Shown one piece after another: positions 6,990 to 49,196 of a stretch of 64,000 nt of DNA. The translations under genes and the position numbers were made by a program. The notes beneath the pieces are model-generated. The model searched no databases. It had not been told where the DNA came from and saw only the letters and a program-made list of their open reading frames with translations. Numbering within the stretch: position 1 is the stretch's first letter; the number at the start of each line of letters is the position of its first letter. Source of the stretch: an uncultured Planctomycetales bacterium (GTDB lineage Bacteria > Omnitrophota > Gorgyraeia > Zapsychrales > Fredricksoniimonadaceae). The stretch is from the NCBI GenBank assembly GCA_964572155.1, contig CAZNDZ010000001.1:271300-335299 (forward strand), read 5' to 3'.

Positions 6990-7002
6990 TTTGCATAAAA
7001 AA

Positions 7003-7096: not shown

Positions 7097-7131
7097 ACGG
7101 CAAAGCAGCGACGTAAAAATATAAAAATTAC

Positions 7132-7206
7132 GGCGAGGTAGCCAAGTGGTAAGGCAGTGGTCTGCAAAACCGCTATTCACCGGTTCGATTCCGGTCCTCG
7201 CCTCCA
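7132..7206 (+). tRNA. tRNA-Cys (anticodon GCA)
   Basis: Acceptor stem GGCGAGG/CCTCGCC. The anticodon loop is CU-GCA-AA. The T-arm is ACCGGTTCGATTCCGGT. CCA is encoded. Confidence 0.85.
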
Positions 7207-7266
7207 GTCTTCGTCAAATTGCTTTCGCGTTTGACTACGACTGGCTTCGCCAGAAAAATTTTGGAA

Positions 7267-7344
7267 GGACTCTTAGCTCAGTTTGGTTAGAGCGCATCCT
7301 TGACATGGATGAGGTCACAGGTTCGATCCCTGTAGAGTCCACCA
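7267..7344 (+). tRNA. tRNA-Val (anticodon GAC)
   Basis: Acceptor stem GGACTCT/AGAGTCC. The anticodon loop is TT-GAC-AT. The T-arm is ACAGGTTCGATCCCTGT. CCA is encoded. Confidence 0.85.
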
Positions 7345-33213: not shown

Positions 33214-36200
33214 ATGGTTTCCAAAAGAAGCATCCTAAGCGCAGCAATTTTAATTTCATTCCTATTTACAACCATTATCCCTGCCAACCGCGTTTTTGCA
33301 CTTGAAAGCACCCTTTTAACATTACCAAAACCTGGGACCATGGTTGCTGTCAGTCAACCGCTGGTGCCTGTTATGCTTAAAGGCTTACAGATTAATCCCA
33401 AAAATCCGTTGATCGTTGATTTCTTAGTTTCAAAAGGCGATGAGGTTTTAGGCCAAGCGCAATATTACAAAGAAATTGAAACCTTAGCCCGATATTTCCT
33501 CGCCAGCATGGCCATTCCAGAAGATCAATTATGGGTTAACTTATCCCCATTTGAAAAAGACAAGATCATAACCGACCCTTTAAGTCAAACCGAGATGGGC
33601 CAAAATATGTTGGCGCAAGATTATTTGCTTAAGCAATTAACAGCGTCGATGATTTACCCTGAAAAATCATTGGGGAAAGAATTTTGGAGCCGTATTTATG
33701 AACAAGCCAAGAATAAAACAGGTAATGCGAATATTCCTGTTAATACCTTTAATAAGGTGTGGATCTTAGCCGACACAGCCAATGCCGTTGAAAAAGGCAA
33801 CACCGTCATGATCACCGATGCGCATTTGAAAGTCATGTTGGAAGAAGATTATTTAGCCGCTAAGAAGCATGATGTTGTCTCAAACAATGAAAATTCTAGA
33901 ATCATCAGAGAGCTCATCATTCCGGAACTAGAAAAAGAAGTAAATACAGGCAAAAATTTCGCCCCATTGCGCCAAATCTTCAATGCTTTTGTGTTGTCTG
34001 TTTGGTATAAGCAAAACCTAAAACAATCCATCCTCAATCAAGTTTACGCCGATAAAACCAAACTGGGCGGCATCGAAGCCAAAGACAGACAAGCCAAACA
34101 AAAGATCTATGAGCGTTATATCCAAGCTTATAAGAAGGGCGTATTCAATTACATTAGAGAAGACAAAACACAGGGTGTCTCACAGCCACGCAAATATTTC
34201 TCAGGCGGAGAAGTCATCTCAGCGCAACATGTGAAATTTACCCGTGATGCAGCGATGTTTGCCGAGGCATTAACAAAGCCGTTGGATAGGGCGCGAGTTG
34301 AATTTGATGCAGCCATGAGAAGCGATGATCGCGGCAATTTCTTGTCTGTGATCGATAATGCAAACACGGATAATTTGCCCGAAGCAGCGGTTGCTATTCT
34401 TGAACAGCGCGCCAAAGACATTACAACAAGCGTCATAACAAAAAATGTGATTGAAGAAACACAGTCATTAGGGATACCCGTTAACATTAGGGTTAAGGAA
34501 ATAGCAGACCAAGATAATGTTTATAATGCCGAAAACATCATACAAAATGGCTATATCATTGAATATTCAAATGACATTAATCGTGAAAAAGGTGAAGGCG
34601 ATGCGGTTATTTATGTAACCAGTAGCTTTAGAAAGAAAATCGCTGATAACAATGGGTTGTTTTATTTTTATGTAAGAAAGATTCTAAAGATATATGAAAC
34701 GTCGGGCAATGCTGGCAGACAAAAAGAAGTGGATTTTATAAAAGCAAAAATAGAAGATGAAAAGCAAAGATTGAATGGGAGGGCAAAGATTGAAAAATCT
34801 TTGGCTTTAAGGATTCCTCCTGAAAGTTTCCCATGGGTATTGTTAGAGCGCGAAGCCAATGCATTATTAATCAATCCAACGTTATCGAAAGAACAGCGGA
34901 GCCCAGAGTATTTCAAAGAACGCGTAAAACACATTTTCCCAAATAGAAAGTTTAAGAAGATTGTTGTTCCGGGAACAGTGGCGTTTGAAGCATCGCAAGA
35001 AGCGTATCGATTGATGAAGAACAATGCTAATTTAAAGCTTATCAATGCCATGGATGGTGTGGCAAATTATGCAGATACAATCCCATCCACGGTCAAAGGG
35101 ATGATGGATCGTTTGAAAGAAGGCAAGCCTATTACCTTTGCATTTGGTGCTTCGAAATATAATCCGTCCTCTATCGCACACATTTCTGTCACCTTAGACG
35201 GAACATTCGCTCAAACAGGTGCATCCAGTTACATTGTCAATGTAACGCTCGAAGATGTCCGCAAGCCCTCGGTAAAAAAGTCAGCAAAGTCTCGTCTTAA
35301 ATTAGCCAAGGCGGATATCGAAGGTATTTTTAAGAATTTATTTACCATCTTAGATGTGAGTGAGCCAATCAATGGGTATGATCTAGGAAAATATAATGGG
35401 GAAGAAGTCTTCTTTCTAATTATCAAAATGTTAATACCTTATGGTTTGCAGGGTCCGCAATATTATGTCGCTGGTGAAGACCATTACTTTATTTTTGCAC
35501 CGTTGGGCAATGATCCTCAAAGCAAGTTCATTCAGTGGGATTTGATGGAAAATGAAAATGTACGGCAGCATTATACGTTTTATGCCAGCGAGTTTAATGG
35601 GGATGATTGGAAAACGTATCAAGAATTAGTTCGTCGTCAGGTGGTGTTGAGTAAAAATTTAGGACCAAGCACGGAAGCTAGATCCTTCTATTCAGATGAG
35701 GATAGTGCGCTCGATCGTAACGTTAAAGAAGGTATTATTAATGGCATCATTCAGGCTAAGACAAAAGAAAGATTGCTAGATGTTATGAATGCCGCGTCGA
35801 CGTTGCCCCGTTTTGATACAGCGGGTAAGGCGGTGGCAATTAACTTAGAGCATGACATACAAAAGAGTAGCGTTAAGGCGGTTTTGGTTCTTCCTCATCG
35901 ACAAGGTGCGCGGGGGCACGATAGTTTAAGAGATCAATTGGTTGAGGAGAAGAAACTAATCGTTATGCCCATGGAAGGGATCAAGCATGCTGTTTCAGCA
36001 ACAACTAATAGAAAATTCTTAGAACAAATTTTAACAGGCGTCTTTGATTATAATTATGGTTACGGGTTGACTATGGAAACCATGGAAAATATGAACAAAG
36101 ATCCCGAAATATTTCGCATCCTTGTACGACAAAGCGGCGTTAAGTTGCCCTTAGCATTACCATTGTTAATGCCAGAGCCGAGCGAACTAAAGGATTCAGT

Positions 36201-36720
36201 TAAACAAAAAGATTTTGAATTAAAAAGAGAGTTGCTAAAGTTAGGCGCACATCATGAAGAGGGCACAACACCTGCAGGCGATGAGTCGTACATTAAAGTG
36301 TTTGATGCGATGGGCAAGGAAGCCGTTTTTGTTGAATATTACATTGTAAATGGTCTAGATGAGCATGAGGGCGGGAGATTAAAAGATAAGAATACTGTAG
36401 AATACACGAAGATCACCGTCAATAAAGAAAGCCCAAATGGCCAAAAGATTTTAAAGCTCATTGAGGATTATGTGAAGCATTTAAATGATGCTGCGATGGT
36501 TTCTAAAGATATTGTGAATACGACACGCAATGAAAATAATGTGGGCGGTATCGAGCTTAATCGGAAAGATTTGAATTTGAATGTTACAAAAGAAGGGCAG
36601 GGGTTGCAGTTTGAGATGGATCCTGTTTTGTTGGAAGAGTTGAAGTCAGATAATTTTGGTGGGTTTAGACCGACGGTGTTGAGCATCACACCATTGAGGG
36701 CAAGCCCTGCATTGAATTAA
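33214..36720 (+). CDS. Giant secreted protein A (1168 aa). It has a signal peptide, a conserved N-domain (shared with B), a variable core and a conserved ~50-aa C-terminal module.
   Basis: A long uninterrupted ORF with signal peptide MVSKRSILSAAILISFLFTTIIPANRVFA. Residues ~30-340 are ~60% identical to protein B. The last ~50 aa align with B's C-terminus. Confidence 0.8.
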   Translation: MVSKRSILSAAILISFLFTTIIPANRVFALESTLLTLPKPGTMVAVSQPLVPVMLKGLQINPKNPLIVDFLVSKGDEVLGQAQYYKEIETLARYFLASMAIPEDQLWVNLSPFEKDKIITDPLSQTEMGQNMLAQDYLLKQLTASMIYPEKSLGKEFWSRIYEQAKNKTGNANIPVNTFNKVWILADTANAVEKGNTVMITDAHLKVMLEEDYLAAKKHDVVSNNENSRIIRELIIPELEKEVNTGKNFAPLRQIFNAFVLSVWYKQNLKQSILNQVYADKTKLGGIEAKDRQAKQKIYERYIQAYKKGVFNYIREDKTQGVSQPRKYFSGGEVISAQHVKFTRDAAMFAEALTKPLDRARVEFDAAMRSDDRGNFLSVIDNANTDNLPEAAVAILEQRAKDITTSVITKNVIEETQSLGIPVNIRVKEIADQDNVYNAENIIQNGYIIEYSNDINREKGEGDAVIYVTSSFRKKIADNNGLFYFYVRKILKIYETSGNAGRQKEVDFIKAKIEDEKQRLNGRAKIEKSLALRIPPESFPWVLLEREANALLINPTLSKEQRSPEYFKERVKHIFPNRKFKKIVVPGTVAFEASQEAYRLMKNNANLKLINAMDGVANYADTIPSTVKGMMDRLKEGKPITFAFGASKYNPSSIAHISVTLDGTFAQTGASSYIVNVTLEDVRKPSVKKSAKSRLKLAKADIEGIFKNLFTILDVSEPINGYDLGKYNGEEVFFLIIKMLIPYGLQGPQYYVAGEDHYFIFAPLGNDPQSKFIQWDLMENENVRQHYTFYASEFNGDDWKTYQELVRRQVVLSKNLGPSTEARSFYSDEDSALDRNVKEGIINGIIQAKTKERLLDVMNAASTLPRFDTAGKAVAINLEHDIQKSSVKAVLVLPHRQGARGHDSLRDQLVEEKKLIVMPMEGIKHAVSATTNRKFLEQILTGVFDYNYGYGLTMETMENMNKDPEIFRILVRQSGVKLPLALPLLMPEPSELKDSVKQKDFELKRELLKLGAHHEEGTTPAGDESYIKVFDAMGKEAVFVEYYIVNGLDEHEGGRLKDKNTVEYTKITVNKESPNGQKILKLIEDYVKHLNDAAMVSKDIVNTTRNENNVGGIELNRKDLNLNVTKEGQGLQFEMDPVLLEELKSDNFGGFRPTVLSITPLRASPALN

Positions 36721-36791
36721 GAGGGCAACAACATTGATGTTGTTGCGTATCGATTAACATGGATGTTAAACGTAATTCCAAGGAGTTTTAC

Positions 36792-39700
36792 ATGAACGGA
36801 TGTCGCAAATACATTTCTTTAACGGTGTTGGTCGCTTTCTTTTGCTCGACGTTGACGCCCATTAAAAATGCCAATGCTGCGCCTTTGGTTGCGGGTTTAC
36901 CCACGCCTGGGGCCATGGTCAATTTAAGCGCAACATATACGCCGCTATTGATCAAAGGCTTGCGTGTTCATCCAGAAAATCCATTGGTGTTTGATTTTAT
37001 CGTCGACACAGGCAACTCGCCCATTAAGAGCGACTCTAAAGAATTGCGTGCGCAGTCCGAAAAGCTCATCAAATATTTTTTAGCGACATTAACCATCCCC
37101 GAGAAAGATTTGTGGGTCAACCTTTCTCCTTATGAAAAAGATCGCATCATCGAAGAACCATTAGGCCAAACCGAACTAGGCCGCGACATGTTGGCGCAAG
37201 ATTACTTGCTCAAACAATTAACTGCCTCCTTGGTTTATCCTGAAAAAGAATTAGGTAAGAAATTTTGGGACAAAGTTTATGCTCAAGCCCGCGAACGTTT
37301 TGGTGTTACCAATATTCCGGTCAACACGTTTAACAAAGTTTGGATTTTGCCTGATCAAGCCGACATTTTTGTCCGCAACAACACAGCCTTTGTTGTTAAT
37401 GGTCATTTGAAAGTTATGCTTGAGGAAGATTATTTGGCATCAAAGAAAAACAGCGTCGCTAGCAGCAGTGAGAATTCTCAAATTATTCGGGAGATTATTT
37501 TGCCTGAGATTGAAAAAGAAGTTAATCAAGGTCAAAATTTTGCCCCATTGCGTCAAATCTTTAATTCCATGATTTTAGCGACGTGGTACAAAAAAAGCCT
37601 CAAAGAAGCGCTGCTCAACCAAGTGTATGCAAATAAAGCCAAGATCAATGGCGTCGATGCAGATGATAAAGCGATTAAAGCCAAGATTTACGAACAATAT
37701 TTACAAGCCTATAAGAAGGGTGTTTTTAATTATATCAAAGAGACAAACACATCAAATGGTCAAGTTACCCCCAAGAAGTATTTCTCCGGCGGGGAAGTCT
37801 TTACTAATATCCCTGTAAGTGAAATTTCAAATCCTTCACCCGCAATGATTGCACCAGCAGGCAGTTTATTTTCTGTGAATGCAGCGATGAGTAGCAGCGC
37901 TACTGTTTATAGAGCGGCAAGATTAAATGGTCTTGAGAAAGCTCAAAAAGCTAAAGAAGATGAAATAAATACCACGGTTAATCGTTATTTTGAAGCTTTG
38001 CAATATGCAGAACCACTTCAACAAAGACAGGTAGCTGAATATCAGGGTTTGGCTAGATTTATTTTGGAGGACTTAGATGAGCATGTTGATTCAGCGACGA
38101 GAAAGAAGCTCATTGCAAGCGTCATGACAAACATTGTGGGTTGGGCAAAGCAAGATCTAGATGGGAAATTGGATCCAAATGCAAAAGCTGTTTTTTCTTT
38201 AACAGCGTTTCCAATCATTCATTGGGGACACATCGAGTTGATCTTAAGAACGCTCAATCAAAAACATTTGTCTGGCCTTTCACTAGATCTTAGTGCTCAA
38301 AGTGCGAATAATCCATTAATTGGGGCTTCGTATGAGGACAGGATGTATTTGTTAAAAATCATGTTGCAAAGGTTTAATGGAAGTTTCTCGAGAGACAAAT
38401 TGACAGCGATTAATGAAGATCAGCGTCCAGAAGAAACCGGCGAACGCAGGCTTTTGGAGAGCATCAAAACAGCCAATAAAGGACAAACGCTTTATTATCC
38501 TGTTGGAAAAGGCTATGAGAGTACTATAGAACAATTTGCTGCATGGGCGCGAAATTCAGAGAATGCTAAGATTCTCGAAGAAAGGGATTTAAAACTCGTT
38601 GTTCTCGTCAATAGATTAAGCGAAGCTCAAAAAGTTTCTGCTAAACAAATAGCAAACAGGGTTAGTGTGGAAGTTTTAGATGGTGTTGATTTAGGCATTA
38701 ATAACACCGCCATCAGAGCGGGGCTCGCAAGCACTCCTAATAAGCCAGCAATTAACGGCATATGGTTTATTCCAAAGTCATTGGTTTTGCATCTTGCACG
38801 CATATCTCCAAGCACTTTAGGAAATATCATGGGGATTCCCGACATTCTTAAAGACATTGATCAAAAAGGCATGAGTTCAAGCATTGCTGTCTTAAAAGAC
38901 TTTATTGATAATGTTTATTCTGCACAAGGAAATTACCTGATCACAGAAGAGATTGTAGAGTTGTTCATGCCCAATCTAGCAGATGATAAAAAACAGGTTT
39001 TGGCGGATAAAATGCAATCTCTGTTGGATAAAGCGATGACTCAAATTAATCCAAGAGAAGTTGCTGCCGGCATCAGGTTTTGGGAAGGGTTGGATAAGAC
39101 AACAGTTATTAAGGGTGATTATTGGGCTTTACAAGAAAAGGATGTGTCGGATTTAGACAGCATTTCAGCATCTGAAGGTAAAGAATTGGAAAGCATTGGC
39201 GCCAATACCTTGAGAAATGGCCAAATTGCGGTGATGGGGCTTTGGGCAGGCGCAAGCTCTAGAATGAATACACATGAAGCGCCAGCTGAGATTAAGAAGA
39301 TAGTTAAGGGAAAAGAATTAGGGTCAAAAGCAGTTGTTCCAATTGGACAATATAATGGCGATGTTATTACGTATGCCGATATTGCCGCGTTTAATTTAAA
39401 GCGATTATTTGATCAGATCGATGCAGCTGCTAAAAAGGCAGGCATTGTGTCTAATGTTACTAATAATGTCGTTGGTTTTATGACCAATGATGCGTATCAA
39501 TCAGAACATGATGCAATGTTTATAGCGCATCAAAATTATGGCATGAAGAATCCCATACATTCATTCAGACAGCGCTTAGGTCCTATTTTTCAAGCACGTC
39601 CAATTGATGTTGAGAAATATTTTGGAGAAGAAAATAAACAAACATTTAAAAATGAAGAAGAGCGAAGTGCTTGGAGACAGAAAAAAGAAAGAGCTTTGAA

Positions 39701-42140
39701 AATTGCAGGAGAGTCAAGTTTACGCATTGATTCTAGGGGAGACGAGAGCGCTGTTATTGTCCCTGAAGATAGACAGCCGTTAGGGCATGGAGAATTTCTA
39801 ATGCAGCTTATTGAGTCTGGGGAAATCATAAGACTTATTGATCAAGGGATTAGATTTGTCTCTATTAGAAATGTAGATAACTATGCAGCAAAGTATGACA
39901 GTATGTGGCTTCGGACGATAGGGTATGCCGTTAAGAACAATCTCGACTTTTTGATAGAGAATTCATTGCGTGTTCCAGGACAAAAAGGTGGGGTCGGTGT
40001 CGGTACACCTAACGGACATGTTATCGGAGAAGATCCAATTCTGAATGCGGATATTGATAAAACAACAGATCGGCCCAAAGTTCCATCTACTTCAGGAAAA
40101 TGGATGAATAATGCCGTTGGTATTGCAAGCATACCTTACATTTTGCAATTTTTTAAGCAAGAGGGACAAAGTGATGCTGAATTAATTGATGAGTTAAGAA
40201 ATGCAAACGCAGAACAGCGTGCTGCGATTGCCGATCGAGGCAGAAAACTACTTCCAAAAATTTACGACGTTAAACCTGGAAAGTCTTCCGACGAGAAGTA
40301 TAAGGGCGGCTTAACAAGTAAGGGTGAAACAAATCTTTGGACATCTACAATTGTTTCGGGAAAAGACAAGAAGATTGCAGTTGTTGGTGTCAGAGGCATT
40401 GGGCATTTTGATTTAAATGCTTTTAAAGCAGCAACAGCTGAACAAAAAATTGAGATGTTAAGAAGAGTTCGTTTTATGGCAACGAAACAGTGGGATGTTC
40501 CAGAATCATCAAGGGTTAAATTAAAGAAAGAATTAGAAACATTGTTGGGCAGAGAAATGACAGAAGAAGAAGCGGGCTTAAGATTGGAAAGTTACGAAGG
40601 AAATAAGCCTCTCGCAGACCCAATGATAAAATATATTATGGAAGCCCCCTTAGTTGACGAAAATATTTTCCAAGGCATGAAAGATGATCCTGCAATGTCA
40701 GGCCAAGTTGGGCGAGGTGAGGATCAATTGCAGCAGAAGTTATTCACTACAGAACAAATGGGTGCTGGTGAAGCGGCTTTAGTAGCAACCTTGAATCAAA
40801 AGCCATTGACAATTGAGGAGCAGAGATCCTATTTGGAAAAGGCAAGAAATGCGTTCTTTAGTGAAGTTCAAGCAGTGCCTGAAATTATGAGTGGTATGCA
40901 AGATGCGTTTAAGCGATTTCATATTACTAGCATCACATTTGAAAGTGCTAGACAAGATCAACTCCCAAGAAATTTAGAGGCGTTGAAGAATCAACTAAAT
41001 GTTATTAAGAACACAGCTGTGCAATTGATGCAGAAGGCAGCGCAAGATAAGATCAATACGCTTCTTCCTATTTTGGTACAAACGGATAAGTTTGGAAGAA
41101 AGAAAATTGAGAATCTTCAAGTGTTACAAATAGAACTTAACGCATTAAAGAATTCTAACGTCAGTGCAGATCAACAATTTGATGCGTTAAAAATCATTTT
41201 TAATAAACTCAAAGCATTAGATCAGGCGATGACCGTTGCAGAGCTTAATCGTATTAATGTTTTGTATCCCAGCGACGAGAGCGTTAGGATGCTTGATAAG
41301 ATTAAAGAATCAGATATTGTGTCTTTGGGATTAGTAAATTCAGATGAGGATATAGAAGCCCCAGAAAAAGCGCGTGGATTTTTAAATGGCGAGTTTTCAG
41401 AGCAAGATCTTCAAAATATAACAACTGTTCAAAGAGGAACAGAAATATTCCAGTTTCTTGAAAAAGTAGGATTCTTAGTGCGTGTAAATGGCCATGCGAT
41501 TTCAAGCCATAGGAGTCAACTTGAATTAAGAAGTTTCATAGAAATGAACTTTCCAGAGAACTTAAATGTTGTTGATTTCTTCAATCAATTAAGAAGGCCT
41601 TCGGTAAGATACTATCCTAGAATGCCGGAATTATTGGTTGTTAAGAATGCGACTTTTGATGTTATCGCTGGAACTCGGGTTATTCCTGATACAGCATCAA
41701 AGGGCCAGAAAGATTATCCTTTGGGGTATACAAGTGCAGTAAAGGCAATTTACTTTTCCGAAAGATTCCTTGAGCGCATGAAGGATCAGGGCGTAAAGTT
41801 AGACGACCTGCTTGTTTTTGTGAATGCTGGAGAAACTCCCAAAGAGCGAGCGGAAATGTATGCCAAGTATCAAGCTTACAAGAGAATGTTGGCAAATAGA
41901 GACGATCAAGCCCAGTTAGCAAATCCAGGCGGTATTGATCTTAATACGAAGGGTATGAGATCCTCTGTTACGGGGGATAAGATTGATATTCAATTTGATC
42001 CGGCGATGGTTGAGCAGTTTAAACGTGGGGATTTTACGGGTGTTCGACCGGTGATCTTAAATGTGACGCCGCTCACAAGCGTGTTGCCATTATTAGGACT
42101 CGCGCCCCGTCGTGAAGACGATGTTGCATTGGGCGTTTAA
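36792..42140 (+). CDS. Giant secreted protein B (about 1782 aa). It has a signal peptide, the shared N-domain, a UDP-glucose-pyrophosphorylase-like nucleotidyltransferase domain, a helical region and the shared C-terminal module.
   Basis: The start is chosen at ATG 36792, 6 nt after AAGGAG. The track ORF starting at 36759 has no Shine-Dalgarno. Signal peptide is MNGCRKYISLTVLVAFFCSTLTPIKNANA. The nucleotidyltransferase motifs are …QPLGHGEFLMQLIESGEIIRLIDQGIRFVSIRNVDNY… and …QKGGVGVGTPNG…. Confidence 0.8.
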   Translation: MNGCRKYISLTVLVAFFCSTLTPIKNANAAPLVAGLPTPGAMVNLSATYTPLLIKGLRVHPENPLVFDFIVDTGNSPIKSDSKELRAQSEKLIKYFLATLTIPEKDLWVNLSPYEKDRIIEEPLGQTELGRDMLAQDYLLKQLTASLVYPEKELGKKFWDKVYAQARERFGVTNIPVNTFNKVWILPDQADIFVRNNTAFVVNGHLKVMLEEDYLASKKNSVASSSENSQIIREIILPEIEKEVNQGQNFAPLRQIFNSMILATWYKKSLKEALLNQVYANKAKINGVDADDKAIKAKIYEQYLQAYKKGVFNYIKETNTSNGQVTPKKYFSGGEVFTNIPVSEISNPSPAMIAPAGSLFSVNAAMSSSATVYRAARLNGLEKAQKAKEDEINTTVNRYFEALQYAEPLQQRQVAEYQGLARFILEDLDEHVDSATRKKLIASVMTNIVGWAKQDLDGKLDPNAKAVFSLTAFPIIHWGHIELILRTLNQKHLSGLSLDLSAQSANNPLIGASYEDRMYLLKIMLQRFNGSFSRDKLTAINEDQRPEETGERRLLESIKTANKGQTLYYPVGKGYESTIEQFAAWARNSENAKILEERDLKLVVLVNRLSEAQKVSAKQIANRVSVEVLDGVDLGINNTAIRAGLASTPNKPAINGIWFIPKSLVLHLARISPSTLGNIMGIPDILKDIDQKGMSSSIAVLKDFIDNVYSAQGNYLITEEIVELFMPNLADDKKQVLADKMQSLLDKAMTQINPREVAAGIRFWEGLDKTTVIKGDYWALQEKDVSDLDSISASEGKELESIGANTLRNGQIAVMGLWAGASSRMNTHEAPAEIKKIVKGKELGSKAVVPIGQYNGDVITYADIAAFNLKRLFDQIDAAAKKAGIVSNVTNNVVGFMTNDAYQSEHDAMFIAHQNYGMKNPIHSFRQRLGPIFQARPIDVEKYFGEENKQTFKNEEERSAWRQKKERALKIAGESSLRIDSRGDESAVIVPEDRQPLGHGEFLMQLIESGEIIRLIDQGIRFVSIRNVDNYAAKYDSMWLRTIGYAVKNNLDFLIENSLRVPGQKGGVGVGTPNGHVIGEDPILNADIDKTTDRPKVPSTSGKWMNNAVGIASIPYILQFFKQEGQSDAELIDELRNANAEQRAAIADRGRKLLPKIYDVKPGKSSDEKYKGGLTSKGETNLWTSTIVSGKDKKIAVVGVRGIGHFDLNAFKAATAEQKIEMLRRVRFMATKQWDVPESSRVKLKKELETLLGREMTEEEAGLRLESYEGNKPLADPMIKYIMEAPLVDENIFQGMKDDPAMSGQVGRGEDQLQQKLFTTEQMGAGEAALVATLNQKPLTIEEQRSYLEKARNAFFSEVQAVPEIMSGMQDAFKRFHITSITFESARQDQLPRNLEALKNQLNVIKNTAVQLMQKAAQDKINTLLPILVQTDKFGRKKIENLQVLQIELNALKNSNVSADQQFDALKIIFNKLKALDQAMTVAELNRINVLYPSDESVRMLDKIKESDIVSLGLVNSDEDIEAPEKARGFLNGEFSEQDLQNITTVQRGTEIFQFLEKVGFLVRVNGHAISSHRSQLELRSFIEMNFPENLNVVDFFNQLRRPSVRYYPRMPELLVVKNATFDVIAGTRVIPDTASKGQKDYPLGYTSAVKAIYFSERFLERMKDQGVKLDDLLVFVNAGETPKERAEMYAKYQAYKRMLANRDDQAQLANPGGIDLNTKGMRSSVTGDKIDIQFDPAMVEQFKRGDFTGVRPVILNVTPLTSVLPLLGLAPRREDDVALGV

Positions 42141-42181: not shown

Positions 42182-43417
42182 ATGAGCGAACAGGCGAAGA
42201 ATAAGAAATTAAATGTTTCATCTGCAGAAGAGTTGAAGATCCTGCGCACCATTGTGGACATTGCGTCCTCCGAGCTCGATCTTGTATTAACCCTTCAGTT
42301 GATTGTTAAAATTGTTACTGAAATTACCGCCGCTGATTCGGTTTTCATTTATCTCTTTGATGATAAGAAAGAAAACTTGGTGCTCATGGCATCCAAGACT
42401 AGCCATAAAAAAGAATTAGGGCAGTTGGAATTAAAGGTGGGCGAAGGTATTACCGGGTGGGTAGCTAAAGAGAACATGCCCGTTGCCATCAAGAGCCATG
42501 CCTATAAAGATCCTCGCTTTAAAGGGTTTGATGTGTTGCCAGAAGATCGCTACGAAGCCTTCCTTTCGGTGCCTATAGTATATAAGGGAAAAGCCATCGG
42601 GGTTGTTAACGTTCAACATAAACGCGAACAAGATTATTCCCAAACAACGGTTAACCTGCTTGAGATGATTGCCAAGCAAGTTGGCGGCGTCATTGATCAT
42701 GCGCGTCTTTTTGAAGAAACCAAGCAAAAAGCGCTGCAGTTTGATTCTTTGGTCAAGGTTAGCCAAAGCATCACCTCCGAACACTATTTAGACGAAATTT
42801 TAAATCTGATTGTGGTTGTGACCGCCGAGATGCTTAACTCTAAGATTTGCTCGATCATGTTGTTAGATGAAAAGGGCACAGAGTTATCGATTAAAGCAAC
42901 ACAATCATTAAGTGTGGACTATAAAAAGAAGCCAAATATTAGCGTAGAAAATTCTCTAACTGGTTCTGTTATAAAGACTAAAGAACCAGCTGTGGTTTAT
43001 GATGTGCAAAAAGAAGACAGGTATGCATATCGAGATCTAGCCTCCAAAGAAGGGTTAACCTCGATGGTGGCCGTTCCCATGATCCTCAAAGATAAAGCCA
43101 TTGGCGTTATCAATGTTTATACCAAGAAACACCATCGCTTCTCAAAAGAAGAGATCAATGTGTTGCAAATGGTTGCCAACCAAGCAGCGGTGGCGGTTGA
43201 AAATACCAAATTGATGGAAGAAGCCCTTAAAGCCAAGGAAGCCTTGGAAACACGCAAGTTAATCGAGCGCGCCAAGGGCATTATCATGAAAATGAACGGC
43301 CTCTCAGAAGACGCGGCCTATAAATTGATTCATAAAAAGAGCATGGATACCTGCCGATCAATGAAAGAAATCGCTGAGTCGATTATCTTAATGTCGGATT
43401 TGCAAAAGGGCATCTAG
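42182..43417 (+). CDS. GAF-GAF-ANTAR RNA-binding antitermination regulator
   Basis: Two GAF domains (…GEGITGWVAKENMPV…; …LTGSVIKTKEPAVVYDV…) and a C-terminal ANTAR helix bundle (…ALETRKLIERAKGIIMKMNGLSEDAAYKLIHKKSMD…). Confidence 0.8.
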   Translation: MSEQAKNKKLNVSSAEELKILRTIVDIASSELDLVLTLQLIVKIVTEITAADSVFIYLFDDKKENLVLMASKTSHKKELGQLELKVGEGITGWVAKENMPVAIKSHAYKDPRFKGFDVLPEDRYEAFLSVPIVYKGKAIGVVNVQHKREQDYSQTTVNLLEMIAKQVGGVIDHARLFEETKQKALQFDSLVKVSQSITSEHYLDEILNLIVVVTAEMLNSKICSIMLLDEKGTELSIKATQSLSVDYKKKPNISVENSLTGSVIKTKEPAVVYDVQKEDRYAYRDLASKEGLTSMVAVPMILKDKAIGVINVYTKKHHRFSKEEINVLQMVANQAAVAVENTKLMEEALKAKEALETRKLIERAKGIIMKMNGLSEDAAYKLIHKKSMDTCRSMKEIAESIILMSDLQKGI

Positions 43418-43437
43418 GGCTACCTTAAAAAATTTTA

Positions 43438-43465
43438 TTGACAAAATCGTTTTGTAGTATATACT
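43438..43465 (+). promoter_or_regulatory. Sigma70-type promoter for the amtB-1 leader: TTGACA, 16-bp spacer, TATACT.
   Basis: TTGACA is at 43438-43443 and TATACT at 43460-43465. Confidence 0.45.
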
Positions 43466-43598
43466 TACAACCGTAGTAAAAAATGAACGTTCGAAGCAAC
43501 GATGTTTCGGGCGATATTAAGGGCAACGTTTACGTCCTCTGACTGGCAAGATATATAAAGCCGCGGGGGATTTTTTGTTTTATACATATAGAAAACAT

Positions 43599-43662
43599 CA
43601 GTGACTGATGTGAAGGGCACAGAGGCTCAATCGTATTATTGAATACAGGTTGGGCTTTTTTT
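43599..43662 (+). promoter_or_regulatory. Leader RNA element: the CAGTGACT motif, a hexaloop hairpin GGGC-ACAGAG-GCTC, and an overlapping intrinsic terminator. This is a putative ANTAR target.
   Basis: The hexaloop hairpin is at 43615-43628. Its 3' arm GCTC is the start of the terminator 5' arm GCUCAAUC (43625-43632). That arm pairs with GGUUGGGC (43648-43655, 6 Watson-Crick pairs and 2 G-U). An inner GTATT/AATAC extension is present. The stem is followed by TTTTTTT at 43656-43662. Confidence 0.5.
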
Positions 43663-43686
43663 ATTGTCAAAATCAAGGAGGTACTT

Positions 43687-43809
43687 ATGGTATCTAAACA
43701 AGCAACTTTGGAACGATTCTTACATGCAATGGGTTTTTGTGTGGCTTTCGCGGTGATCGCGGTGGCGGCTGGCATGTTTTGGGCAGTTGAACATCATATT
43801 TTAGTGTAA
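43687..43809 (+). CDS. Small hydrophobic ORF (40 aa, one TM helix) immediately upstream of amtB-1
   Basis: ATG sits 5 nt after AAGGAGG (43675-43681). The product is MVSKQATLERFLHAMGFCVAFAVIAVAAGMFWAVEHHILV. It is below the 60-aa ORF-track cutoff. Confidence 0.4.
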   Translation: MVSKQATLERFLHAMGFCVAFAVIAVAAGMFWAVEHHILV

Positions 43810-43859
43810 ACAGATAACAAACGTATAAACAATAATAACAAAAACAAAGGAGTCAAGAA

Positions 43860-45095
43860 ATGGACGCAAATCCAATTAATGCCGGAGACACATCATGGGT
43901 TCTGGTCTCAACAGCGCTCGTTATGTTGATGACCCCGGGCTTAGCCTTCTTCTACGGCGGCATGGTCAGACGTAAGAACATTTTAGGTGTTTTAATGCAA
44001 TGTATGATCTGTTTGGCGCTGGTTAGCGTCTTGTGGGTTGTATATGGTTACAGCTTAGCGTTTGGTAAAGGTAATGCGTTTATCGGCGGTTTGGATTGGG
44101 CTATGCTTAAGGATGTTGGTCAAACAGCCAACGCTGATTATGCAGCAACAATTCCTCACCAAGTGTTTATGATCTTCCAAGGCATGTTCGCGGTGATCAC
44201 GCCTGCGCTTATCATTGGTTCTTTCGCAGAGCGCATGAAGTTTTCCGCATTCGTTGTTTTCACCGTTTTATGGTTAACGCTTGTATATTCTCCTATCTGT
44301 CACATGGTTTGGGCTGTTGGTGGTTTAGTCCGCGGTTGGGGTGCACTTGACTTCGCCGGTGGTACTGTTGTTCACATCAACGCAGGTATCGCAGGTTTAA
44401 TCTCTGCCATCTACTTAGGTAAACGTATCGGTACTGAAAAACCTGGTATGCACAATGTGCCTTTCGTTGTTTTGGGTGCAGCATTGCTCTGGTTTGGTTG
44501 GTTTGGTTTCAACGCTGGTTCTGCATTAGCAGCTAACGGTTTAGCTGGTTCTGCATTTGTCGTTACAAACACAGCCGCAGCTGCAGCAGCATTAGCATGG
44601 GCTGTTATGGAATGGATCTTTGCAGGTAAACCAACCATGATCGGTACAGTTTCTGGTGCCGTCGCTGGTTTAGTTGCGATCACTCCTGCAGCAGGTTTCG
44701 TTGATGTGGGCGGAGCGCTTATCATCGGTTTAGTTGTTTCTGTCATCTGCTACATGATGGTTGCTTTTGTGAAGACAAAGTTAGGGTACGATGATACATT
44801 AGATGCATTCGGTGTTCACTGTATCGGCGGTATTTGGGGCGCTTTAGCCACTGGTTTATTTGCTCAAAAGGCTATAAACTCTGCCGGTGCTGATGGTTTG
44901 TTCTATGGTAATCCTGCTCAATTCATCATTCAGATCAAAGCGGTATTGTTTACGGTTGCGTACACAGCCGTTGTCACATGGGTGATCTGTTTCGTGGTTG
45001 ACAAAGTCATGGGCTTGCGTGCTAATGCTGAAGACGAAGTCATGGGCTTGGATTTGAGCCAACATCATGAACGTGCATACACAATTTTAGACTAA
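43860..45095 (+). CDS. amtB: Ammonium transporter (Amt family), copy 1
   Basis: 411 aa with an 11-TM Amt fold and the conserved twin-His region. Confidence 0.9.
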   Translation: MDANPINAGDTSWVLVSTALVMLMTPGLAFFYGGMVRRKNILGVLMQCMICLALVSVLWVVYGYSLAFGKGNAFIGGLDWAMLKDVGQTANADYAATIPHQVFMIFQGMFAVITPALIIGSFAERMKFSAFVVFTVLWLTLVYSPICHMVWAVGGLVRGWGALDFAGGTVVHINAGIAGLISAIYLGKRIGTEKPGMHNVPFVVLGAALLWFGWFGFNAGSALAANGLAGSAFVVTNTAAAAAALAWAVMEWIFAGKPTMIGTVSGAVAGLVAITPAAGFVDVGGALIIGLVVSVICYMMVAFVKTKLGYDDTLDAFGVHCIGGIWGALATGLFAQKAINSAGADGLFYGNPAQFIIQIKAVLFTVAYTAVVTWVICFVVDKVMGLRANAEDEVMGLDLSQHHERAYTILD

Positions 45096-45123
45096 TCTAA
45101 CTTTTTTCACGAAAGGAAAGGCA

Positions 45124-45465
45124 ATGAAATTAATTATCGCAATCATCCAGCCTCATCGCCTCGACGATGTAAAGCGCGAGTTATATGCGGCGGATGTTAA
45201 TTTGATCACCGTATCAGAAGTGTTAGGCCACGGCCGTCAAGTTGGTGTTGACGAATTTTACCGCGGTGTTAAAGAAACAGGTAACTTGTTGCGTAAGATC
45301 CAAATTGAGATCGCGGTCAACGAAGATTTCGTTGAACCATCCATCAAGGCGATCATCAAGGGTGCACGCACAGGTAAAATCGGCGATGGTAAGATCTTCG
45401 TCTTAGATTTACCACGCACCATCCGTATTCGTACGGGCGAAGAAGGCACCAAGGCCATCGGCTAA
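45124..45465 (+). CDS. glnK: Nitrogen regulatory protein P-II (GlnK-like)
   Basis: 113 aa with the P-II fold and T-loop …GHGRQVGVDEFYRGVKE…. Position 51 is Glu rather than Tyr. Confidence 0.9.
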   Translation: MKLIIAIIQPHRLDDVKRELYAADVNLITVSEVLGHGRQVGVDEFYRGVKETGNLLRKIQIEIAVNEDFVEPSIKAIIKGARTGKIGDGKIFVLDLPRTIRIRTGEEGTKAIG

Positions 45466-45474
45466 GTTTGCCGC

Positions 45475-45503
45475 TTGACTGAAAATAAATAACACGATAT
45501 CAT
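45475..45503 (+). promoter_or_regulatory. Sigma70-type promoter for the amtB-2 leader: TTGACT, 17-bp spacer, TATCAT.
   Basis: TTGACT is at 45475-45480 and TATCAT at 45498-45503. Confidence 0.45.
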
Positions 45504-45546
45504 GGCTCGTCTTTATGGGCGATGATGTCTGTAGGGCATAAGCTTT

Positions 45547-45596
45547 GAGGCTTGAGGATTCTGTTAAACATAGAATTCTCAGGCCTCTTTGTTTTT
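45547..45596 (+). terminator. Intrinsic terminator/attenuator within the amtB-2 leader
   Basis: A 16-bp stem GAGGCTTGAGGATTCT/AGAATTCTCAGGCCTC with 2 mismatches or wobbles and a 9-nt loop. It is followed by TTTGTTTTT and lies 80 nt upstream of the amtB-2 ATG. Confidence 0.6.
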
Positions 45597-45675
45597 GTGG
45601 CATTGGTGCCAGCGGTTCCGATGAGGGAAAAGGCGATAATCAAAGGATATATGATGATGCAGGGGAGTTTATATA

Positions 45676-46914
45676 ATGGAAGGCATTTCACAAATCAGCG
45701 CCGGAGATACGGCGTGGGTGCTGGTGTGCGCCGCGTTGGTCTTATTGATGACGCCAGCATTGGGTTTCTTCTATGGAGGGATGGTCCGTCGTAAAAATGT
45801 TTTAGGTATTTTGATGCAATGCATGAGTTGTTTGGCCTTGATTAGTATTTTGTGGGGCATTTATGGCTACAGTTTGGCGTTTGCACCTGGAAATTTGATT
45901 TTTGGTGGGCTTGATTGGTTTATGCTCAAAGGTGTTGGTGTAACACCCAATAGCGACTATGCGCCAACCATACCGCATGCTGCGTTTATGATTTTTCAAT
46001 GCATGTTTGCGGTCATCACCCCCGCAGTCATTGTGGGGTCATACGCAGAACGTGTGAAGTTTTCTGCATTTTTATTGTTCACCGTTTTATGGCTAACCTT
46101 TGTTTATTGCCCTGTCGCGCATATGGCCTGGGGCATGGGCGGACTATTTCGCAACATGGGCATCCTTGATTTTGCCGGCGGCACCGTTGTTGAAATCAAC
46201 TGCGGGATTGCAGGTTTAGTCACCGCATTATTTTTAGGTAAGCGCATCGGCATTAGTCATCCAACATTGCACAATATACCTTTTGTCGTCTTAGGGGCAG
46301 GTTTATTATGGTTTGGGTGGCTTGGCTTTAACGCGGGCTCTGCTCTCTCGGCTAACGGCGTTGCGGTCAATGCCTTTGTCACGACCAATATGGCTGCAGC
46401 CGCAGCCGCCACCAGCTGGGCGATTGTGGAATGGTGTTTGACAGGTAAACCAACCATCTTTGGTGCCGTCACAGGTGCGGTGGCAGGTTTGGTTGCCATC
46501 ACCCCAGCTGCGGGCTTTGTTGATTTTACAGGGGCCTTAATCATTGGCTTTGTTGTGAGCGTCATCAGCTACTTTTTCGTTGGCGCTATCAAGCATAAAT
46601 TCCAATATGATGATTCGCTCGATGCGTTTGGTGTTCATGCAGTGGGTGGTGCATGGGGCATGTTGGCCACAGGCTTATTAGCCACAACAACCGTCAATGC
46701 CGCAGGTGCAAATGGTTTACTAAACGGTAACCCAAAGCAATTTAGCATACAACTCATGTGTGTGATCATGACCATGGTTTATTGTGCGGCGGTTACCTTG
46801 GTGATCTGTTTTGTCGTCGACAAAATGATTGGCATGCGGGTTAATCGTGAGGATGAGGTCATGGGTTTAGACTTAACCCAGCATCATGAAAGAGCTTACA
46901 CCATCTTAGATTAA
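45676..46914 (+). CDS. amtB: Ammonium transporter (Amt family), copy 2
   Basis: 412 aa, about 60% identical to copy 1. Confidence 0.9.
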   Translation: MEGISQISAGDTAWVLVCAALVLLMTPALGFFYGGMVRRKNVLGILMQCMSCLALISILWGIYGYSLAFAPGNLIFGGLDWFMLKGVGVTPNSDYAPTIPHAAFMIFQCMFAVITPAVIVGSYAERVKFSAFLLFTVLWLTFVYCPVAHMAWGMGGLFRNMGILDFAGGTVVEINCGIAGLVTALFLGKRIGISHPTLHNIPFVVLGAGLLWFGWLGFNAGSALSANGVAVNAFVTTNMAAAAAATSWAIVEWCLTGKPTIFGAVTGAVAGLVAITPAAGFVDFTGALIIGFVVSVISYFFVGAIKHKFQYDDSLDAFGVHAVGGAWGMLATGLLATTTVNAAGANGLLNGNPKQFSIQLMCVIMTMVYCAAVTLVICFVVDKMIGMRVNREDEVMGLDLTQHHERAYTILD

Positions 46915-46940
46915 TCGCCTGTTTTAGGTATTAAAAAAAC

Positions 46941-46969
46941 TTGACTTTATGGTCGATTTTCAGTAAAAT
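46941..46969 (+). promoter_or_regulatory. Sigma70-type promoter for the glnN leader: TTGACT, 17-bp spacer, TAAAAT.
   Basis: TTGACT is at 46941-46946 and TAAAAT at 46964-46969. Confidence 0.45.
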
Positions 46970-46970
46970 T

Positions 46971-47046
46971 CAGTACTTAATTTGAGGGCACAGACGTCCT
47001 CCTTGAACCACAATGTTAGTGTGCGCCAAGGAGGACTTTTTATTTT
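46971..47046 (+). promoter_or_regulatory. Leader RNA element: the CAGTACT motif, a hexaloop hairpin GAGGGC-ACAGAC-GTCCTC, and an overlapping intrinsic terminator. This is a putative ANTAR target.
   Basis: The hexaloop hairpin is at 46984-47001. Its 3' arm GTCCTC is the start of the terminator 5' arm GTCCTCCTTG (46996-47005). That arm pairs perfectly with CAAGGAGGAC (47027-47036). The stem is followed by TTTTTATTTT at 47037-47046. The terminator 3' arm contains an AAGGAGG Shine-Dalgarno. Confidence 0.5.
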
Positions 47047-47079
47047 ATGGAATCTAACAACAACCAGGGGGGTCTATGA
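47047..47079 (+). CDS. 10-codon upstream ORF MESNNNQGGL. Its stop overlaps the glnN start codon (ATGA).
   Basis: ATG at 47047 directly follows the terminator T-tract. The stop TGA is at 47077-47079 and overlaps glnN ATG 47076-47078. The only strong Shine-Dalgarno in the area (47028-47034) serves this uORF. Confidence 0.35.
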   Translation: MESNNNQGGL

Positions 47080-49196
47080 GTCAAGCAAGAGAAGAAGTTA
47101 TTCAAGCCTGCAACGATGAAGATTGTGGTTGCGACGCAAATTTCAGCGCAAATTTACCTTCATATTTCGGTCAAAACGTGTTCTCGCTCAAGGTGATGCG
47201 CGAATTCCTTTCACCAAAAGCTTATGCATCCATTGAAAAGACAATTAAAGAAGGCGGCAAGGTAGATCCAGCGATTGCTGATGAAGTTGCCGAAGGCATG
47301 AAGAAATGGGCTATTTCTAAGGGTGCAACCCACTTTACACATTGGTTCCAACCTTTAACAGGTACCACCGCTGAAAAGCATGATTCATTTATCACATGGG
47401 ATGATAAAGGTGGGATTATCTTAAGTTTTGGCGGCAAAGAATTAATCCAAGGTGAACCAGATGCATCTTCTTTCCCATCCGGTGGTTTGCGTGCAACATT
47501 CGAAGCACGTGGTTATACAGGTTGGGATCCAACATCTCCAGCGTTCATCAAAGAAGGTCCAGAAGGCGCCACATTATGTATCCCAACATTCTATATTGGT
47601 TACCATGGTGAAGCGTTAGATAAGAAAACACCATTGCTGCGTTCCATGAATGCCTTATCTAAACAAATTTGCCGCTTGGCTAACTTGTTTAGCATCGACA
47701 CCAAGGGTAAACGTGCATACTGCACCTTAGGGCCAGAACAAGAATATTTTTTGATCGATAAAATTCACTTCGAAGCACGTATGGACTTGGTTCAAACCGG
47801 CCGTACCTTATTCGGTGTAAAACCAGCAAAGCATCAACAACAAGAAGATCATTATTTTGGCGCCATCAAGCCACGCGTCATGGCCTTCATGGAAGATTTA
47901 GACCGCACCTTGTGGGGTTTAGGTATTCCGTCGAAAACACGTCACAATGAAGTCGCCCCTGCGCAATACGAAATGGCTCCAATTTACGAAGATTTAAACA
48001 CGGGCGTTGATCATAACATGATCGCCATGGAAGTCATGCGTCAATTAGCCGATAAGCATGGTTTAGTTTGTTTGCTCCATGAAAAACCATTCGCCGGTGT
48101 TAACGGTTCTGGTAAACATAACAACTGGTCTGTCGTAGGTCCAGATGGCAAGAACTGGTTATATCCTGGTAAAACACCACACGAAAATGCGAAATTCTTA
48201 ACCACCTTATGCGCGATCATCAAAGCTGTCGATACATACGCTGACCTTTTACGCGTCACGGTTGCAACCGCTGGTAACGATCACCGCTTAGGTGCCAACG
48301 AAGCGCCTCCTGCGATTGTTTCAATCTTCTTAGGCGATCAATTATTTGACATCGTCGAGCAAATTGAAAAAGGCGGAGCAAAGACCTCCAAGCAAGGTGG
48401 CGAAATCAACGTGGGCGTAGATGCATTGCCAACATTAAGCAAAGACACCACAGATCGTAACCGCACATCGCCATTTGCGTTTACCGGCGCTAAGTTCGAA
48501 TTCCGCGCTGTTGGTTCAAATCAAAACCCTTCAGCTGCTAACATGGTTTTAAACACCATCGTCGCTGAAGCGATCTCACAAATCTGTGATCAATTAGAAG
48601 CTGATAAGAAAGCCGGCAAGGATTTCAATAAATCCTTACAAGCTGTCTTGCAAGACATCATCAAGAAACATAAACGCGTCCTCTTTAACGGCGACGGCTA
48701 CACCAAAGAATGGCATGCCGAAGCGAAGAAACGTGGTTTACCAAACATGAAAACAACACCAGAAGCCTTGGAAGTTTTAAAGGCTAAGAAGAACATCGAT
48801 GTTTTAGTCAAACATGGTGTTTTATCTGCTGTTGAAGTGGCCTCACGTTATGAAATCAACAAACATGCATACGATACTGTCATCAGCTTAGAAGGCAGCT
48901 GTGCAGCGACGATCGCTCGTACACAATTGATTCCTGCAGCTTTGGAATTCCAAGCCCAATTAAGCGTGGTTAAATCAGCGACACAAAAGAAATTGCAAAA
49001 ACAAGTTTCTGATTTGATCGATGATGCTTTAACGACAGTTGCCGCTTTGGAAGCAGCTGTGGCAAAGCATGATTCTGCTAAAACATCAGCAAACATGTTG
49101 AAATTACGTGAAGCCATCGATGGTTTGGAAGCATTAGTTCCAGCATCCATCTGGCCATTGCCAAGTTATGCTGAAATGTTGTTAATGAACGCATAA
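47076..49196 (+). CDS. glnN: Glutamine synthetase type III (GlnN)
   Basis: 706 aa, the length and architecture of type III GS. The catalytic region is …NGSGKHNNWSV…. Confidence 0.85.
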   Translation: MSQAREEVIQACNDEDCGCDANFSANLPSYFGQNVFSLKVMREFLSPKAYASIEKTIKEGGKVDPAIADEVAEGMKKWAISKGATHFTHWFQPLTGTTAEKHDSFITWDDKGGIILSFGGKELIQGEPDASSFPSGGLRATFEARGYTGWDPTSPAFIKEGPEGATLCIPTFYIGYHGEALDKKTPLLRSMNALSKQICRLANLFSIDTKGKRAYCTLGPEQEYFLIDKIHFEARMDLVQTGRTLFGVKPAKHQQQEDHYFGAIKPRVMAFMEDLDRTLWGLGIPSKTRHNEVAPAQYEMAPIYEDLNTGVDHNMIAMEVMRQLADKHGLVCLLHEKPFAGVNGSGKHNNWSVVGPDGKNWLYPGKTPHENAKFLTTLCAIIKAVDTYADLLRVTVATAGNDHRLGANEAPPAIVSIFLGDQLFDIVEQIEKGGAKTSKQGGEINVGVDALPTLSKDTTDRNRTSPFAFTGAKFEFRAVGSNQNPSAANMVLNTIVAEAISQICDQLEADKKAGKDFNKSLQAVLQDIIKKHKRVLFNGDGYTKEWHAEAKKRGLPNMKTTPEALEVLKAKKNIDVLVKHGVLSAVEVASRYEINKHAYDTVISLEGSCAATIARTQLIPAALEFQAQLSVVKSATQKKLQKQVSDLIDDALTTVAALEAAVAKHDSAKTSANMLKLREAIDGLEALVPASIWPLPSYAEMLLMNA

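Follow-up and report, generated by a model that had tools for sequence, protein, structure and literature searches.

Among described proteins, the closest in kind to those reported here are the giant proteins and Archaeovorins of Omnitrophota, which combine signal peptides or transmembrane segments with PGM, hexokinase, TIM, GPI, FBA and kinase domains in predicted extracytoplasmic regions (10.1101/2023.11.21.568195; 10.64898/2026.06.07.730766). The N-terminal regions of the giants are stated to lack identifiable domains (10.1101/2023.11.21.568195). Here we analysed a stretch of 64,000 nucleotides (the window) from an uncultured Planctomycetales bacterium of the GTDB lineage Omnitrophota (contig CAZNDZ010000001.1, positions 271,300 to 335,299), which carries two adjacent genes for very large proteins, A and B. 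From their sequences, A and B are best read as tandem paralogues of a very large modular carrier family, in which a conserved N-terminal domain (the head) and a small conserved C-terminal module (the tail) enclose a variable middle part (the cargo). The family resembles the giants and Archaeovorins in its phylum, in the association of export signals with cytoplasmic-type enzymes, and in its HEAT and TPR repeat-scaffold cargo. However, those proteins reach at least 10,000 amino acids (aa), whereas members of this family range from 650 to more than 3,000 aa; no transmembrane helices are present in A or B. Compared by description only, the papers on the giants and Archaeovorins do not describe the head of about 300 aa, the GGIDLN tail or the junction motif D-x-A-M presented below.

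Modular proteins that are exported and combine conserved handles with a variable cargo are already known, as are metabolic domains in exported Omnitrophota proteins. What appears to be new is a phylum-wide family with a head of about 300 aa that has no detectable fold relative and a coupled tail of about 60 aa, together with the D-x-A-M junction motif and the breadth of intact central-metabolism enzymes found between head and tail. No description of the family, its motifs, head, tail or D-x-A-M was found in the literature, in a coverage that leaves out most subscription journals.

Several known systems share part of this architecture. TpsA proteins carry a Sec signal, a conserved N-terminal TPS domain of about 250-300 aa that is recognised by the transporter, and a large variable passenger. 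A and B show the same order of predicted Sec signal, conserved N-terminal domain and variable passenger, but their head is predicted to be mixed alpha/beta and not a beta-helix, and they bear a conserved C-terminal module as well. Neither A nor B matched the Pfam TPS model, no gene for a TpsB (Omp85-type) transporter was found beside the pair, and no neighbour was conserved in the 79 loci of relatives compared below. Cargo proteins of the type IX secretion system (T9SS) are also similar, with an N-terminal Sec signal and a small conserved domain at the extreme C-terminus of functionally unrelated proteins. This C-terminal domain is described as a seven-stranded Ig-like sandwich (PMC11285876). 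T9SS is a system of Bacteroidota, whereas the tail described here is predicted as strand-helix-strand and is always paired with the head; no Pfam or NCBIfam match to the T9SS C-terminal sorting domain was obtained on the tail.

Polymorphic toxins such as CdiA, Rhs and MafB likewise have conserved trafficking parts, swappable payloads, many paralogues and tandem arrays. They differ in that their toxin is C-terminal and followed by an immunity gene, while the payload here lies inside the protein and is made up of metabolic enzymes or repeats. No toxin domain was matched in A or B by PADLOC or Pfam, and no immunity-like small open reading frame (ORF) follows the pair, the next gene encoding a GAF-ANTAR regulator. 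In flagellins, a hypervariable middle, sometimes an enzyme, is flanked by conserved parts at the N- and C-terminus; unlike the present proteins they are without a Sec signal, their fold is not similar, and the cargo here is far larger and made of several modules. Finally, the signal-peptide hexokinase of microsporidia and the glycogen enzymes of Chlamydia in the inclusion are exported housekeeping sugar enzymes that act on host pools. These are single enzymes that use other secretion routes and have no common head or tail, so the analogy is a functional one only.

The tandem pair and its conserved ends

ORF A (33214..36720, + strand) encodes 1168 aa and is a family member with NadD-like cargo. 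The frame of ORF B is open from a first ATG at 36759 (36759..42140, + strand), which would give 1793 aa. An AAGGAG Shine-Dalgarno sequence (36780..36785, +) precedes the ATG at 36792, and the equivalent methionine opens the database entry P0011 (1782 aa) and its close homologue P0008. B is therefore most likely a protein of 1782 aa starting at 36792 (36792..42140, + strand); its residue numbers in this text are nevertheless counted from 36759. The two genes lie on the same strand, separated by 38 nucleotides, or by 71 up to the likely start of B. This agrees with the first-pass annotation of the window, made from the sequence alone, which had described a back-to-back same-strand pair of 1168 and about 1782 aa. 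Between the two genes, immediately downstream of the A stop codon, stands a perfect 9-bp hairpin, GCAACAACA-TTGA-TGTTGTTGC (36725..36746). It has no U-tract after it on the + strand and might act in RNA stability or attenuation between the paralogues.

When A and B were compared by BLASTP, residues 1-336 of A matched residues 12-349 of B with 55% identity over 339 columns (E 9e-121). For the mature N-terminal part, tblastn gave 58.7% identity over 303 residues, close to the roughly 60% over about 310 residues reported in the first-pass annotation, and every conserved block quoted there was present in the BLASTP alignment. At the other end, residues 1109-1161 of A matched residues 1722-1772 of B (43% identity over 53 residues, E 2e-9), as had been claimed for the last 50 or so residues. 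No significant similarity was detected by BLASTP between these two matches, and a tblastn search of the window revealed no further copies of the head or tail. The tandem pair with shared termini is real and far beyond chance.

To place the pair, a family search was performed with A at E ≤1e-3 over 8,000 scored candidates, and at least 3,653 protein clusters matched. These relatives strongly support the arrangement of conserved termini with variable cargo between them that had been proposed for A and B: they share the first 330 or so residues at 45-57% identity, while their middles differ. The 120 proteins referred to below are the best 120 relatives (650-2010 aa long), and the 79 loci are the best 79 from species-representative genomes. 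All named sources were metagenome-assembled genomes (MAGs) of Candidatus Omnitrophota or Omnitrophica, except for one partial protein labelled Elusimicrobia. In GTDB, with one genome per species, at least 589 matches were confirmed, and the best 79 loci all came from Omnitrophota MAGs or MAGs labelled 'uncultured Planctomycetales', several of them from the same MAG. As far as seen among named sources, and generic or mis-binned labels aside, the family is restricted to Omnitrophota. The distribution and copy number of the N-domain, which the earlier annotation had suggested examining, are thus Omnitrophota-wide with several loci per MAG. Two or three tandem copies on the same strand were present in 14/79 loci, which makes the A-B tandem typical. 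A viral origin was rejected, the head being found in 3 of 2.9 million viral contigs; the IMG/VR contigs with a family member (L080-L082) are probably host regions or misclassified.

Both proteins start with a predicted signal peptide. In A it covers residues 1-29 (MVSKRS...NRVFA/LE, the slash marking the cleavage site; 33214..33300, +), with a K/R n-region, a hydrophobic core and Ala at -1 and -3. In B (MNGCRK...KNANA/AP; 36792..36878, +) a K/R n-region and hydrophobic core are followed by an A-x-A site. The calls are a heuristic reading of these sequence features (n-region, core, A-x-A). Just after the cleavage site, the mature N-terminus carries a [LIVMF]PxPG(x)MV motif in 115/120 relatives; in A the sequence is VFA/LESTLLTLPKPG and in B ANA/APLVAGLPTPG, in both cases within 3-7 residues of the site. 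The same spacing of 3-7 residues between predicted cleavage site and LPxPG motif is kept in the 115 motif-bearing relatives. Among them, K/R precedes the hydrophobic core in 111, a strongly hydrophobic 12-mer is present in 112, and Ala occupies position -1 of a small-x-small site in 111. By the same heuristic, the signal peptides assigned to A and B at first pass therefore stand, with the features recurring in 111-115 of the 115 relatives. From these features, A and B are inferred to be exported via Sec. Sequence reading revealed neither an anchoring transmembrane segment nor a lipobox in A or B.

Other export classes were considered and rejected. A lipoprotein would need a lipobox Cys, and none is in register. 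The LPXTG and PEP-CTERM readings fail since there is no C-terminal transmembrane helix with a basic tail, the tail being acidic. For an autotransporter (type Va), the conserved tail of about 55-70 aa contrasts with a barrel of at least about 250 aa, and no Pfam match was obtained.

The head covers residues 30-336 of A (LPKPGTMV...RKYFSGG; 33301..34221, +) and 41-349 of B (36879..37805, +). Of its roughly 300 residues, 37 are invariant in the 120 sequences; the invariant blocks WVNLSP.E, DY.LKQ, KVW, F..LRQ and YFSGG are all present in both A and B. An AlphaFold2 model built from 79 sequences has a mixed alpha/beta fold, with a predicted local distance difference test (pLDDT) score of 77 and a predicted template modelling score of 0.79. 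The model leaves the conserved extended segment at the start of the mature protein unstructured, and no further transmembrane-like helix was seen in the AlphaFold2 models of the head. Scans of A and B against Pfam, NCBIfam, PADLOC and PHROGs gave no match for either head or tail, and none was obtained when the PDB sequences were searched with A or with a 9-sequence profile. The N-domain had been called uncharacterised, and indeed neither the sequence libraries nor fold comparison with solved structures assigned it to a family.

The tail measures 55-70 residues, with the consensus GGIDLN-x20-DPAM-x10-F.G..PVI..ITP. The GGI(D/E)LN...DP(A/V)(M/L)...ITP module is present in A (residues 1109-1168, GGIELN...DPVLL...FGGFRPTVLSITP; 36538..36717, +) and in B, where the module and the end of the protein together (GGIDLN...FDPAMVEQFKRGDFTGVRPVILNVTPLTSVLPLLGLAPRREDDVALGV) span 41922..42137 (+). 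The structure model predicts a strand-helix-strand arrangement for the tail of A. This module forms the extreme C-terminus in 118/120 relatives. Head and tail are strictly coupled: the head-only or tail-only ORFs found in the 79 loci were all cut by a locus or contig end or belonged to frameshift-split genes. A head-only ORF followed by a tail-only ORF was observed at L001, L018, L020, L038, L044 and L049, representing an assembly frameshift or a pseudogene. In many relatives, the tail module is followed by PLLGL-x-P-(acidic)-LA(K/G)V, which B has (42075-42137) and A lacks. Val is the last residue in 30/120 relatives and is rare in this position among neighbouring ORFs. This ending looks like a further short C-terminal recognition motif.

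Cargo of the two proteins and of their relatives

The cargo region of A (residues ~376-1090; 34339..36483, +) is specific to the family. An exhaustive HMMER search with its profile gave 44 proteins among 1.84 billion representatives, nearly all matching at residues ~380-1100 of proteins of 1000-1400 aa with the same architecture; this cargo type thus appears only inside the family. The AlphaFold2 model reached a pLDDT of about 90 for residues 480-970. Neither the cargo of A nor the 9-sequence profile matched NadD/NMNAT or any other family in Pfam, NCBIfam or the PDB hidden Markov models. Nevertheless, A's cargo displays a Rossmann-like nucleotidyltransferase fold of the NadD/NMNAT kind at about residues 640-970 (35131..36123, +), with the motifs SKYNPSSIAH (648-657), NGEE, GEDH and VSATTNR (927-933). 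The 830-aa middle of A, put down as unassignable in the first-pass annotation, could in this way be assigned where sequence methods gave nothing. In A and eight full-length homologues, SKFNPxTxAH, RKP, NGEE, GxDH and SATxxR are conserved, and the His of T-x-A-H and the T and R of SATxxR are invariant in the nine. We take SKFNPxTxAH and SATxxR to be the (H/T)xGH and ISxTxxR signatures of the superfamily; the T-x-G-H form is that of PPAT. With these candidate signature motifs conserved, the domain looks catalytically competent.

In B, four modules can be delimited between head and tail. Module 1 (residues 378-757; 37890..39029, +) is a probable second NadD-like nucleotidyltransferase, with FPIIHWGH, SYEDRMYLLK, YYPVGK and NNTAIR. 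When it was compared with the A cargo profile by hhalign, the motifs were aligned in order, a weak result (E 0.005 in a single comparison, probability 7%). Module 1 had no Pfam or PDB sequence match, and BLASTP against the member P0062, named 'NaMN adenylyltransferase' by JGI, was not significant. The middles of A and B thus probably share a nucleotidyltransferase module, as a weak lead. They had been described as unrelated, which holds at the level of BLAST, but they may share a NadD-like fold.

Module 2 of B (residues 761-1310; 39039..40688, +) appears UDP-glucose-pyrophosphorylase-like. B matched Pfam PF01704 (UDPGP) with 30.5-32 bits (cut-off 22), a partial match that covers only residues 1003-1072 and profile positions 160-226 of 413, and it matched the UDP-glucose pyrophosphorylases of the PDB with E 7.5e-6. 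These two matches agree with the enzymatic domain that B had been said to carry. Module 3 (residues 1314-1488; 40698..41222, +), bounded by DPAM and DQAM, is probably helical, its only match being a sub-threshold one to Spectrin_3, and module 4 (residues 1492-1716; 41232..41906, +) had no domain match.

The relatives carry a wide range of other cargo. Adenylate kinase was matched over its full length with 163 bits, and further examples are hexokinase, PGM, malate synthase, Glu/Leu dehydrogenase and a class I/II aminotransferase. When 36 complete ORFs were taken from the loci without selection, they contained phosphoglycerate kinase (PGK, E 2.7e-107), glucose-6-phosphate isomerase (PGI, E 5.6e-199) and enolase (E 5.7e-86), as well as PGM, UDPGP, CofD and ankyrin, HEAT and TPR repeats. 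One 2795-aa member from the Omnitrophota MAG nHLHbin2 (L042:4253-12637) has PGK and a complete enolase between head and tail, the latter matching PDB enolases with 365 bits over residues 2090-2537. Catalytic signature peptides are intact in relatives (SHRSGETED, RVDYNVP, GGRYS and the adenylate kinase P-loop). Judged by these matches, the cargo consists mostly of cytoplasmic-type enzymes of nucleotide, sugar-phosphate and glycolytic metabolism. Members of more than 3,000 aa run off the ends of loci L006, L029, L046 and L066; together with the 2795-aa protein, they suggest that the family may grade into the 'giant' Omnitrophota proteins.

Signal-less stand-alone genes for PGK and PGI also occur in Omnitrophota loci, and PGK and enolase are reported in 176/176 complete genomes (10.64898/2026.06.07.730766). 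Both points support the view that the cargo enzymes would be extra, exported copies.

The joints between these parts are marked by a short motif. In the 120 proteins, D-x-A-M was counted 394 times where shuffling predicts 18.7, a 21-fold enrichment, usually with 2-5 copies per protein. In the model of A, the copies at residues 345, 365 and 1092 all lie in low-confidence linkers; two of them, both D-A-A-M (345-348 and 365-368), stand in the low-pLDDT linker after the head (34222..34338, +). In B, copies at 374 (as NAAM), 757, 1310 and 1488 set head, four modules and tail apart from one another, and the tail itself contains one more. The codons used at the motif differ little from background, which points to selection on the protein. 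On the same ground, a DNA-level recombination or cassette site was rejected. D-x-A-M is a candidate processing site or docking site, and it may provide a rule by which the far longer multi-enzyme proteins of Omnitrophota can be divided into their parts.

Possible role of head and tail

The first-pass annotation had placed A and B among secreted effector, toxin or surface-delivery families. The architecture agrees with such families; the toxin part of the proposal does not hold, the cargo being metabolic enzymes and repeats, and an effector or surface role stays an inference. On the reading of a modular carrier family, the Sec signal would be removed after translocation, and head and tail would then act as a common handle. 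A shared cellular partner would recognise them, or head and tail would recognise each other, for a later step, which might be outer-membrane secretion, surface attachment, polymerisation or host delivery. Such a shared partner would account for the strong conservation of head and tail among paralogues whose cargo is unrelated. The cargo enzymes would work outside the cytoplasm of the producer, at its surface or inside an attached host or prey cell, on host-derived metabolites. Because these enzymes depend on ATP, UTP, NAD precursors and sugar phosphates, the cytoplasm of a host or prey cell, or its released contents, would be the most coherent site. Host-dependent traits have been inferred for Omnitrophota (PMC10066038), and RNA of the predatory epibiont Ca. 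Velamenicoccus archaeovorus was found in dead prey cells (PMC13153191). Exported enzymes would fit the way of life, host-dependent or predatory, that has been proposed for Omnitrophota, and they would also agree with the glycolytic and sugar-metabolism domains noted in predicted extracellular regions of the giants.

Several points weigh against this reading. The prediction of export comes entirely from signal-peptide sequence heuristics. AlphaFold2 confidence for the head is only moderate (pLDDT 77), and no solved structure within reach of the tools matched its fold, so that a binding partner is not hinted at. Enzymes that depend on ATP or NAD normally find no substrates beyond the cytoplasm, so that the reading presupposes access to the cytoplasm or lysate of a host. 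The support for extra copies is at the level of the phylum and not of the same genome. Moreover, no conserved gene for a transporter, protease, chaperone, secretion or immunity protein was found within 8 kb on either side of the members in the 79 loci, the most frequent other gene cluster occurring in 7/79. Taken together, the chances that head and tail serve as a handle for the export, display or delivery of enzymes that act on host-derived metabolites seem to us about evenly balanced. A bolder version is that they are the recognition parts of a new Omnitrophota-specific export, assembly or delivery system, which would allow an 'outsourced metabolism' at or inside the host, with D-x-A-M as processing or docking sites; this is possible, though we hold it to be doubtful.

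If it were true, outsourced hexokinase, PGI, PGM, UDPGP, PGK, enolase, adenylate kinase and NAD-type nucleotidyltransferases would underlie the host dependence of these nanobacteria. Omnitrophota are widespread, uncultured and ultra-small, and their host-dependent or predatory lifestyle is almost without molecular explanation; the family offers concrete, testable candidates for host interaction. It also bears on metabolic reconstructions, in which glycolytic or hexokinase matches in Omnitrophota may be exported fusions and not cytosolic enzymes.

The strict coupling of head and tail could also be explained by a self-assembling surface polymer or lattice, flagellin- or pilin-like, which would display the enzymes through head-tail contacts between subunits, for example by docking of the LPxPGxMV strand. 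The extended N-terminal segment, unstructured in the model, would suit such docking. The high conservation of both modules among paralogues with unrelated cargo would be required for mutual compatibility, and no dedicated partner gene is found nearby. Cargo of more than 3,000 aa in some members would, however, be awkward for a regular polymer, and we consider this explanation unlikely.

Equally unlikely, in our opinion, is a use of the enzymes for the producer's own metabolism. They would then be kept in its periplasm or at its membrane surface as a tethered metabolon that processes imported or host-leaked phosphorylated metabolites before uptake. The cargo does include coherent pathway segments (hexokinase, PGM and UDPGP; PGK and enolase on one chain; PGI), with adenylate kinase for adenylate balance, and preprints report similar domains in giant proteins with signal peptides or transmembrane segments. 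Against this, no ATP or NAD pool is known in the bacterial periplasm, ankyrin, HEAT and TPR cargo does not fit, and A and B are without the anchoring segment or lipobox that tethering would call for.

The D-x-A-M motif raises the question of whether the proteins are polyprotein precursors, from which cuts at D-x-A-M or Gly-Gly would free the enzymes after export, with head and tail as pro-regions. The 21-fold enrichment of the motif, its position in low-confidence linkers and at every module border of B, and selection at the protein rather than the DNA level would agree with this, as would the invariant YFSGG at the end of the head and GGIDLN at the start of the tail. In the giant proteins of the phylum, peptidase domains of types C39 and S8 have been pointed out (10.1101/2023.11.21.568195). 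On the other hand, the motif has just four residues and recurs once within the folded tail module, no protease is known to act with the family, and the argument draws on sequence and model features. Such processing, which could be combined with the other explanations, seems quite improbable.

A mispredicted topology, with an uncleaved or unused N-terminal anchor and modules that scaffold enzymes at the inner membrane face, would suit the cytoplasmic-type cargo and its need for cytoplasmic cofactors and echoes a caveat voiced for giant proteins by West-Roberts et al. (10.1101/2023.11.21.568195), but it is similarly improbable, given that the positive charges before the core (111/115) and A-x-A sites (111/115) mark a Sec signal that is cleaved while the part C-terminal to it is translocated, that the head has no further transmembrane-like helix, and that signal-less stand-alone PGK and PGI exist in Omnitrophota.

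Surroundings of the pair in the window

The pair lies among ordinary chromosomal genes. Upstream are the succinyl-CoA ligase subunit genes (sucCD) and a gene for an AAA_26/DRTGG protein; genes for YidC, aminoacyl-tRNA synthetases, RNase Y and NAD synthase are located farther away in the window. Directly downstream of B is a nitrogen-regulation cluster (42182-49196). It encodes a GAF-GAF-ANTAR regulator (42182-43417), two ammonium transporters (43860-45095 and 45676-46914) and a type III glutamine synthetase (47076-49196). The 113-aa ORF between the two transporter genes (45124-45465) has a position typical of PII/GlnK, for which it is a candidate by position only.

Beyond this cluster, an 830-aa ORF (51414-53906) joins a family-2 glycosyltransferase (residues 57-218) to a full-length DUF1302 (residues 285-828, E 4.6e-147). 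With the listed TTG as its start, this ORF would overlap the end of the NAD synthase gene (49955-51574) for about 160 nucleotides, so the true start probably lies further downstream. A 665-aa ORF (57235-59232) gave no Pfam match at E ≤1e-5. Near the other end of the window, three tRNA genes (Leu-TAA, Cys-GCA and Val-GAC; 6906-7344) lie just upstream of the threonyl-tRNA synthetase gene.

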